Shown piece after piece: positions 30,348 to 48,477 of a stretch of DNA of 64,000 bases; position 1 is the stretch's first letter; every line of letters starts with the position of its first letter. This DNA is from Escherichia coli (lineage in GTDB: Bacteria; Pseudomonadota; Gammaproteobacteria; Enterobacterales; Enterobacteriaceae). The notes under the pieces were generated by a model. That model was not told the DNA's origin, did not search any database, and saw nothing but the letters and a program-made list of their open reading frames with translations. Both the position numbers and the translations under genes were made by a program. Location: NCBI RefSeq assembly GCF_003018255.1, contig NZ_CP027440.1, one strand, 5' to 3'.

Positions 30348-30388
30348 CTAAAAAAAAGCCGCTGGGGTTTAAAACACCCCCAGCGGCT
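30348..30388 (-). terminator. rho-independent terminator of lrhA
   Basis: Stem AGCCGCTGGGG / CCCCAGCGGCT followed on the minus strand by T8. Confidence 0.75.
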
Positions 30389-47331: not shown

Positions 47332-47378
47332 TGTGGTTTACTGCAAACATCCGCCAGTTAACTCCCGGTGTTACAGGG

Positions 47379-47552
47379 TTAGTGGCTTTGCGCGATAAGA
47401 TCGTCTGGTGAAAGTCGGGTCACCATCATAACTAACTCTCGGTCTAAACCTCTCTCCAGCATCTCCTGAGCAATACGCAGGGCTTCTTCGCGTTTGCCAA
47501 GAATTAATCCATCATTCCGCCCTTCTTCACGTAATCTGTCAGCAATAGTCAT
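47379..47552 (-). CDS. candidate internally initiated small protein = C-terminal domain of RpnB (57 aa, [15 protein letters not shown]...), RpnS-like
   Basis: In-frame ATG at 47552 preceded on the coding strand by GAAAAGGAGAAACTG (AAGGAG SD, ~6-nt spacing) inside rpnB. Confidence 0.4.
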
Positions 47553-48281
47553 CAGTTTCTCCTTTTCTTGTGGTGCGCGTTCCGCTATCTCACCAATAAA
47601 TGCACGGAAACGCTGGGCATCCCCCGTTTGTAATACGTAATTAAACAGGGCTTTTAGCTGTCTGTCATTAGTGTTCCCTGTAACTAGCAGCGAAACAATT
47701 TGGTCGACTAATCCCAACAGATCGCGCTGACGAATATGTTTCTGAATTAACTCCAACAGCGCCATTTTGCGATGTTGCATAATCTCGTCATCCGGCACCA
47801 CGGTAATATCTACCAGCGGAAAAGCCGATGAATAAATTTTGCGGGCTATAGCAGGCTCGGCAAATTCATCAAGCCAGCAAAGTGAATAAGGATAAGGACT
47901 TCTGCAACCATGATAAAACAGCATCGGGATCACCAATGGAAGCTCTTTATAGCCTGCATCAAGATGGTTTTGCATCGCCGCAATGGAATAGCGCATCATG
48001 CGAAAAGCCATTAATTCTTCCGGCTTACTTTGGTGCTCTATCACTACATAAATATAACCCGCTCCCTCCTGCGTTTTCACAGACCACAAGAGGTCGGAAT
48101 AATATTGCCGCAGGTCTTCATCAATAAAACTGTTTGGTTCCAGTTTTAGCGTTGTTAAATCACACAGTTTGCGCAGCGGCGCGGGAAGATGAATATCAAT
48201 AAAATCCCGCGCGGTGTCTGGATGGCGTAAAAAAGATTTAAATACCGCATCATGCGGCGTGGAAGTTGTCGATATTGTCAT
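47379..48281 (-). CDS. rpnB: recombination-promoting nuclease RpnB (PD-(D/E)xK, YhgA-like)
   Basis: 300-aa ORF, Rpn/transposase_31-like N-terminal domain plus small C-terminal domain. Confidence 0.85.
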
Positions 48282-48477
48282 GGCGTTCCGTCACCCCTCA
48301 AATTTAAGATGACGCGACAATAACCACGATTAATACCCAATGCAGCAGGCAGTTTTTATCTTTGGACAGCGAATTCAGAACTATTTTTAGCGGACTGCAA
48401 CTTTTACATTTCAGCGGAAGCTGACTCGCAAATTCCCCTTGAAAATACTCCGGCAGCGTTAGCCACCGGAGGGGGAA

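Follow-up and report, generated by a model that had tools for sequence, protein, structure and literature searches.

The rpnB gene of an Escherichia coli chromosome contains the internal start of the published RpnB-L/RpnB-S toxin-antitoxin pair and encodes a long form of RpnB-S

Introduction

A site of internal initiation of translation (iTIS) is present in all five rpn genes of Escherichia coli K-12, as established by ribosome profiling with Onc112 and retapamulin and by SPA-tagging of the five small proteins (Zhong et al. 2023, PNAS 120:e2307382120, PMC10400941). Overexpression of K-12 RpnB is toxic and induces the SOS response in vivo, and RpnB-L*, in which the internal ribosome-binding site (RBS) and start codon are mutated, is more growth-inhibitory when overexpressed (Zhong et al. 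2023, PMC10400941). RpnB-S supplied in trans blocks SOS induction by RpnB-LS whereas RpnA-S does not, RpnB-S does not neutralize RpnA-LS, and the block of SOS induction is lost when D29 of RpnB-S is changed to a stop (PMC10400941). The Mg-dependent DNA endonuclease activity of RpnA was demonstrated in vitro, and its activity residues are D11, D63, E82, Q84 (at the K position), R94, and D165 of the PDDE motif (Kingston 2017). Mutating the RBS and start codon eliminates RpnA-S, and the RpnA complex is composed of two L and two S subunits, with S inhibiting DNA cleavage and high pH dissociating the complex (PMC10400941). In RpnC, one extra four-residue repeat in just one partner abolishes neutralization; such repeats start 8–20 residues after the initiating Met of RpnS (PMC10400941). 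An internal transcription start has been reported in every rpn gene, the short transcript outnumbering the full-length mRNA, and RpnP2 is the only Rpn member with demonstrated anti-phage activity (PMC10400941). The gene-within-a-gene rpn work was the subject of a commentary by Koonin.

Other shorter in-frame products of internal starts within genes of nuclease systems, such as McrB-S and Cas11d, resemble RpnB-S in modulating the full-length protein, although the families are unrelated. McrB-S is a large fragment without the N-terminal DNA-binding domain, unlike the 5–6 kDa RpnB-S tail. Cas11d within cas10d is cited in the rpn work (PMC10400941).

Results

The rpnB locus and its nuclease domain

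The window, by which we mean the whole 64,000-nucleotide stretch of DNA that was analysed, is core chromosome extending from arnD to yfcJ. A segment of 1401 nt at rpnB matches a RefSeq E. coli chromosome at 100%, where the gene is annotated as rpnB with yfcH and hisP as its flanks. The full-length gene and its main domain are as follows.

47379..48281, minus strand: rpnB-L, 300-aa toxin, recombination-promoting nuclease RpnB (stop codon counted in)
47655..48260, minus strand: Transposase_31/YhgA-like PD-(D/E)XK nuclease domain, residues 8–209 (PF04754, E 2.8e-91)

The PF04754 match covers model positions 1–202 of 203, and RpnB of the window scores 189.4 bits against TIGR01784, for which the cut-off is 52.1. 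The protein is 98% identical to K-12 RpnB, and an alignment shows that each of the activity residues listed above for RpnA is kept in both proteins and in the paralogs. On this basis the window allele probably encodes a DNA endonuclease that would be toxic and SOS-inducing when overexpressed.

Two further matches of the full-length protein were noted. NCBIfam NF007418 (“ISNCY family transposase”) also matches RpnB with 465 bits, which is below its cut-off of 583 bits. A search of PDB sequences returned designer pentatricopeptide proteins with E ~1e-14; this match was rejected as an artefact in which about 10 weak helical-hairpin matches are summed, each repeat contributing ~6 bits and no single stretch being significant. 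The part of the protein that resembles the designer-PPR consensus repeat is the helix-turn-helix of RpnB-S, at RpnB residues 257–291 (47382..47510, minus strand).

An internal ribosome-binding site and start codon within rpnB

At the iTIS the minus strand reads ...GCA CCA CAA GAA AAG GAG AAA CTG ATG ACT ATT GCT..., from which the following elements were assigned.

47559..47564, minus strand: internal Shine-Dalgarno (SD) sequence AAGGAG, codons of Lys240-Glu241
47558..47553, minus strand: spacer AAACTG, 6 nt, between AAGGAG and ATG
47550..47552, minus strand: internal initiation codon ATG, in frame, Met244 of RpnB-L and Met1 of RpnB-S
47379..47552, minus strand: rpnB-S, the antitoxin, a 57-aa ORF lying in frame within rpnB-L (stop codon counted in)

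The original prediction placed an AAGGAG with about 6-nt spacing before an in-frame ATG at 47552 inside rpnB, and this can be read directly from the minus strand; translation from that ATG to the stop codon yields exactly the 57-residue C-terminal peptide that had been proposed. Only the Gln codon before Glu-Lys-Glu was misread, as it had been given as CAG and is CAA. The duplex of AAGGAG with the anti-SD sequence has an energy of -8.7 kcal/mol, and the predicted unpaired probability of the hexamer is 0.70 compared with a local mean of 0.52.

The gene corresponds to that of RpnB-L/RpnB-S in K-12 MG1655 (b2305), which lies in the same locus, yfcH-rpnB-hisP, and carries an identical signal at Met244, with SD, spacer, and ATG (AAGGAG-AAACTG-ATG) the same base for base. 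Position 29 counted from Met244 in K-12 RpnB is Asp, and the published K-12 start is the same codon as the ATG at 47552, because the D29 mutation fits a start at M244 only. The feature in the window is therefore the published RpnB-L/RpnB-S gene-within-a-gene toxin-antitoxin, already known and correctly rediscovered. Neutralization of a toxic Rpn nuclease by an intragenic small protein, which had also been suggested for the window, has been demonstrated for K-12 rpnB (PMC10400941). Since the two RpnB proteins are 98% identical, we infer that the window allele, here called the long allele, likewise produces an RpnB-S that would specifically neutralize its cognate RpnB-L.

Conservation of the internal start

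Of the 441 internal in-frame ATGs in the 62 long ORFs of the window, none but the one in rpnB is preceded at 4–9 nt by a 5- or 6-mer SD core. From the frequency of AAGGAG, however, ~0.18 internal SD and ATG sites are expected per 64-kb window, and for this reason the lone occurrence is not significant; within the window sequence by itself the signal is only weakly better than chance. Comparison of alleles and homologs changes the picture, as the conservation then points to far more than chance. In all 11 E. coli rpnB alleles that were sampled over the whole identity range, GAAAAGGAGAAACTGATGAC, comprising SD, spacer, and ATG, is invariant, whereas diversity within the gene peaks 30–130 nt downstream of it. 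In each of the five K-12 rpn paralogs, this position likewise holds an in-frame ATG with an SD-like stretch 6–7 nt ahead of it. An alignment of 14 Rpn sequences, with identity down to 28% (Rickettsia), shows a start codon in the Met244 column in every case (13 ATG and 1 GTG), immediately preceded by a purine-rich SD-like stretch in every case, although the residues encoded by that stretch vary among the homologs (KE, GE, RE, GD, ED, EG, QE, and TG). For 13 homologs, the duplex formed here with the anti-SD sequence has an energy of -4.3 to -11.0 kcal/mol, compared with a mean of -1.64 kcal/mol for the 128 other in-frame ATGs of the homolog genes. Among synonymous recodings of the SD, a fraction of 0.08–0.67 was equally strong or stronger. 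Because the amino acids specified there already require codons rich in purines, recoding does not separate selection on SD nucleotides from selection on Lys-Glu or Gly-Asp residues. Taken together, an internal SD and ATG inside the rpnB gene of the window are confirmed as real and conserved.

The alignment includes eight plasmid homologs. Plasmid Rpn proteins (RpnP2-LS and others) share the domain layout of RpnB, are 28–55% identical to it, and reside on mobile replicons. In all eight, the start codon and SD-like stretch at the Met244 column are followed by a variable number of G-x-x-x tetrad repeats; the repeats are often many more than in RpnB, with S forms of up to 85 aa.

A candidate internal promoter

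A scan with the sigma-70 consensus detected no convincing promoter near the iTIS, the best match being GTGAAA-18-TATATT at 499 nt upstream. The scan missed one further element because its -10 hexamer has no A at position 2.

47640..47668, minus strand: candidate internal promoter ATGACA-17 nt-TTTAAT, ~88 nt upstream of the internal ATG

ATGACA is common to rpnA, rpnB, rpnD, and rpnE. The whole element, a weak candidate with a poor -10 hexamer, may be the internal promoter that was reported or a mere trace of the conserved coding sequence for TNDxQ...LFNY.

Predicted structure of RpnB-S

The crystal structure of RpnA-S (PDB ID 7TH0) comprises 49 aa starting at RpnA Met244, which is homologous to Met244 of RpnB, and the N terminus MTIA(D/E)RLR(E/Q)EG is common to RpnA-S and RpnB-S of the window. 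The two small proteins are 42% identical (E 2e-10), with a single 8-residue gap located exactly at the hypervariable site described below. An AlphaFold2 model of the window RpnB-S, built from 14 RpnS sequences, is predicted to contain three helices (residues 3–33, 38–45, and 49–56) with a pLDDT of 82.6. The top Foldseek match of the model in the PDB is 7TH0 (probability 1.00, TM 0.60/0.74), so that the predicted fold of RpnB-S matches that of RpnA-S, with three helices and a long first helix.

Allele variation in RpnB-S

Nucleotide diversity among the 11 alleles is concentrated in two cassettes of RpnB-S, outside of which it is 0.07 or less.

47492..47522, minus strand: hypervariable cassette 1, residues 11–21 of RpnB-S within helix 1, nucleotide diversity 0.233
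47421..47456, minus strand: variable cassette 2, RpnB-S residues 33–44, diversity 0.177

Cassette 1 has a long form of 11 aa in the window compared with GAMQGKH in K-12, a difference that consists of a 12-nt/4-aa block (47511..47522) and substitutions. RpnB-S of K-12 accordingly has 53 aa compared with 57 aa in the window, which has one more four-residue unit together with the substitutions in helix 1. The indel that distinguishes window-type from K-12-type alleles begins at about S-residue 12, in agreement with the published position of the repeats. To survey its distribution, the last 222 nt of the window rpnB were compared with E. coli genomes, giving matches in 4755. The match is at ≥95% in 1223 of these, and the sampled ones, at ≥96.4%, are 222 nt in length and of the long form; in the remaining 3532 it is below 95%, and the sampled ones, at ≤92.3%, are 210 nt and of the short form. 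Extrapolated in this way, roughly one in four of the E. coli genomes that carry rpnB would have the long RpnB-S.

In cassette 2 the 12-aa form of the window is replaced by EKGFDHEVILTL in O157:H7-type alleles, a dense block substitution in the region of helix 2 that leaves the repeat number unchanged. Residue 33 of RpnB-S is E in the window and D in K-12. Cassette 2 and the tetrad indel in helix 1 combine into at least three RpnB-S haplotypes. Gene conversion from the K-12 rpn paralogs was considered as the source of the cassettes and rejected, as there were no significant DNA matches.

Distribution and annotation of rpnB and rpnB-S

All but one of the 5426 complete E. coli genomes have matches to the rpnB flanks, and about 670 of these 5425 match at the hisP and yfcH flanks only (window ~47358..48371), indicating that rpnB is an accessory gene. 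In strain 1290, the ~1-kb rpnB segment is swapped for ~25 nt of unrelated sequence, leaving a clean empty site at which no insertion sequence (IS) or repeat scar was seen. The rpnB gene of strain 361 (L012 120..1010) is a W66* pseudogene, with the stop in the nuclease part and with the internal SD, ATG, and RpnS frame intact; this strain would have lost the toxin and retained a potential antitoxin. In strain ECNB21-M121 (L024 664..2620), IS903B is inserted in rpnB immediately 3' of the internal start, and the leftover C-terminal rpnB fragment was named “ISNCY family transposase” by PGAP.

No RpnB-S coding sequence (CDS) is annotated in the RefSeq records of K-12 or of strain DETEC-S792. The K-12 record (L001 2150..3040; L004 17959..19338) gives mcrB-S its own CDS and contains no RpnS CDS of any kind. 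The exact 57-aa RpnB-S has been gene-called on 45 public contigs and the 53-aa form on 698; these entries are mostly named “hypothetical protein” or “transposase”, a misleading transposase name that recurs for database fragments of the size of RpnB-S. The window and DETEC-S792 are 99.4–99.9% identical with indels elsewhere, and the rpnB segment is 100% identical. Compared with DETEC-S792, the window has no IS200C copy between nuoA and lrhA (~30352..30357) and has a shorter nuoM-nuoL intergenic region (17771..17932; ~160 compared with 228 nt).

Discussion

The rpnB gene of the window is very probably a single-gene toxin-antitoxin module, with RpnB-L translated from the annotated start and RpnB-S from the internal AAGGAG-N6-ATG. 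Ribosomes that initiate at the annotated start would produce RpnB-L, a putative 300-aa PD-(D/E)XK DNA endonuclease, which in excess and without RpnB-S would cause DNA damage and growth inhibition. Other ribosomes would start at Met244, probably mostly on a shorter transcript from the internal promoter, and produce RpnB-S, a predicted 57-aa three-helix protein with the same sequence as the C-terminal tail of RpnB-L. The long first helix of RpnB-S would bind the matching tail of RpnB-L and thereby block the nuclease until some signal frees RpnB-L. By analogy with RpnA, the stoichiometry of the RpnB L-S complex is likely to be RpnA-like. Because S is nested in L, a change in the repeat region alters L and S together, and the two products of each allele would therefore go on matching one another while being shielded from the remaining Rpn copies.

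The module in the window may defend against phage. The phage-defence role that the original prediction ascribed to Rpn nucleases is so far a finding for plasmid-borne RpnP2-LS only (PMC10400941), and rpnB of the window has housekeeping neighbors. No PADLOC 2.0 model matches the window rpnB, most likely because the 2023 models predate or omit Rpn, and no defence island is found within the window. A different reading accepts that L and S work as described and denies the chromosomal RpnB a role in phage defence, making it either a self-restrained housekeeping or recombination nuclease or a decaying selfish module. The limitation of protection to plasmid RpnP2 is consistent with this reading, and housekeeping roles are allowed for by the authors of that work (PMC10400941); overexpression has also been tied to RecA-independent recombination (Kingston 2017). 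Furthermore, rpnB lies between yfcH and hisP in core metabolic surroundings; ~12% of E. coli genomes have no rpnB, and W66* or IS903B inactivates it in others. On the other side, diversity within rpnB is far higher in the RpnB-S region than anywhere else, which fits arms-race selection, and an enrichment of rpn genes in the vicinity of defence genes has been reported (PMC10400941). We regard the absence of a defence role as a real possibility, though not as the expected outcome.

Ribosome pausing at internal SD-like sequences has been proposed, a claim that is disputed. A small protein could arise when RpnB-L is cleaved by proteases, or the internal SD could just pause elongating ribosomes, with no initiation in either case. 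Nothing in the present analysis favors this, and it is very improbable, as profiling with initiation inhibitors gives a signal in all five rpn genes, RpnA-S is lost upon mutation of the RBS and start, mutations that in RpnB raise toxicity, and the internal short transcript is in excess over the full-length mRNA (PMC10400941); the 57-aa ORF is, in addition, called by itself on the 45 contigs noted above. That the SD-like hexamer and the ATG arise by chance from the codons for Lys-Glu-Lys-Leu-Met, with no separate protein, would accord with the number of such sites expected per 64-kb window and with synonymous recoding, which gives no sign of codon-level SD selection, but it is next to negligible given the invariance of SD and ATG in 11 alleles and their presence in the same column of 14 homologs despite differing residues, and for K-12 it is refuted by the SPA-tag blots and iTIS mutants (PMC10400941).

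With the single-gene toxin-antitoxin module as the preferred reading, the analysis adds little to published knowledge; it shows that a gene-within-a-gene antitoxin can be recognized from sequence alone, the internal SD and ATG at the domain boundary being recognizable by eye, while standard annotation still leaves out RpnB-S. The sole modestly new angle may be that the cassettes define classes that do not cross-react. As proposed here, the two mosaic cassettes would divide RpnB in E. coli into mutually non-neutralizing classes, with cassette 2 acting independently of repeat number, a tentative and on the whole doubtful proposal. If the classes are true, RpnB-S of the window would not restrain K-12-type or O157-type RpnB-L, and cassette 2 would be a second specificity determinant that published work does not address. 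The natural RpnB-S variants, namely the long and short forms and the two helix-2 cassettes, provide a ready set for tests of L-S specificity.
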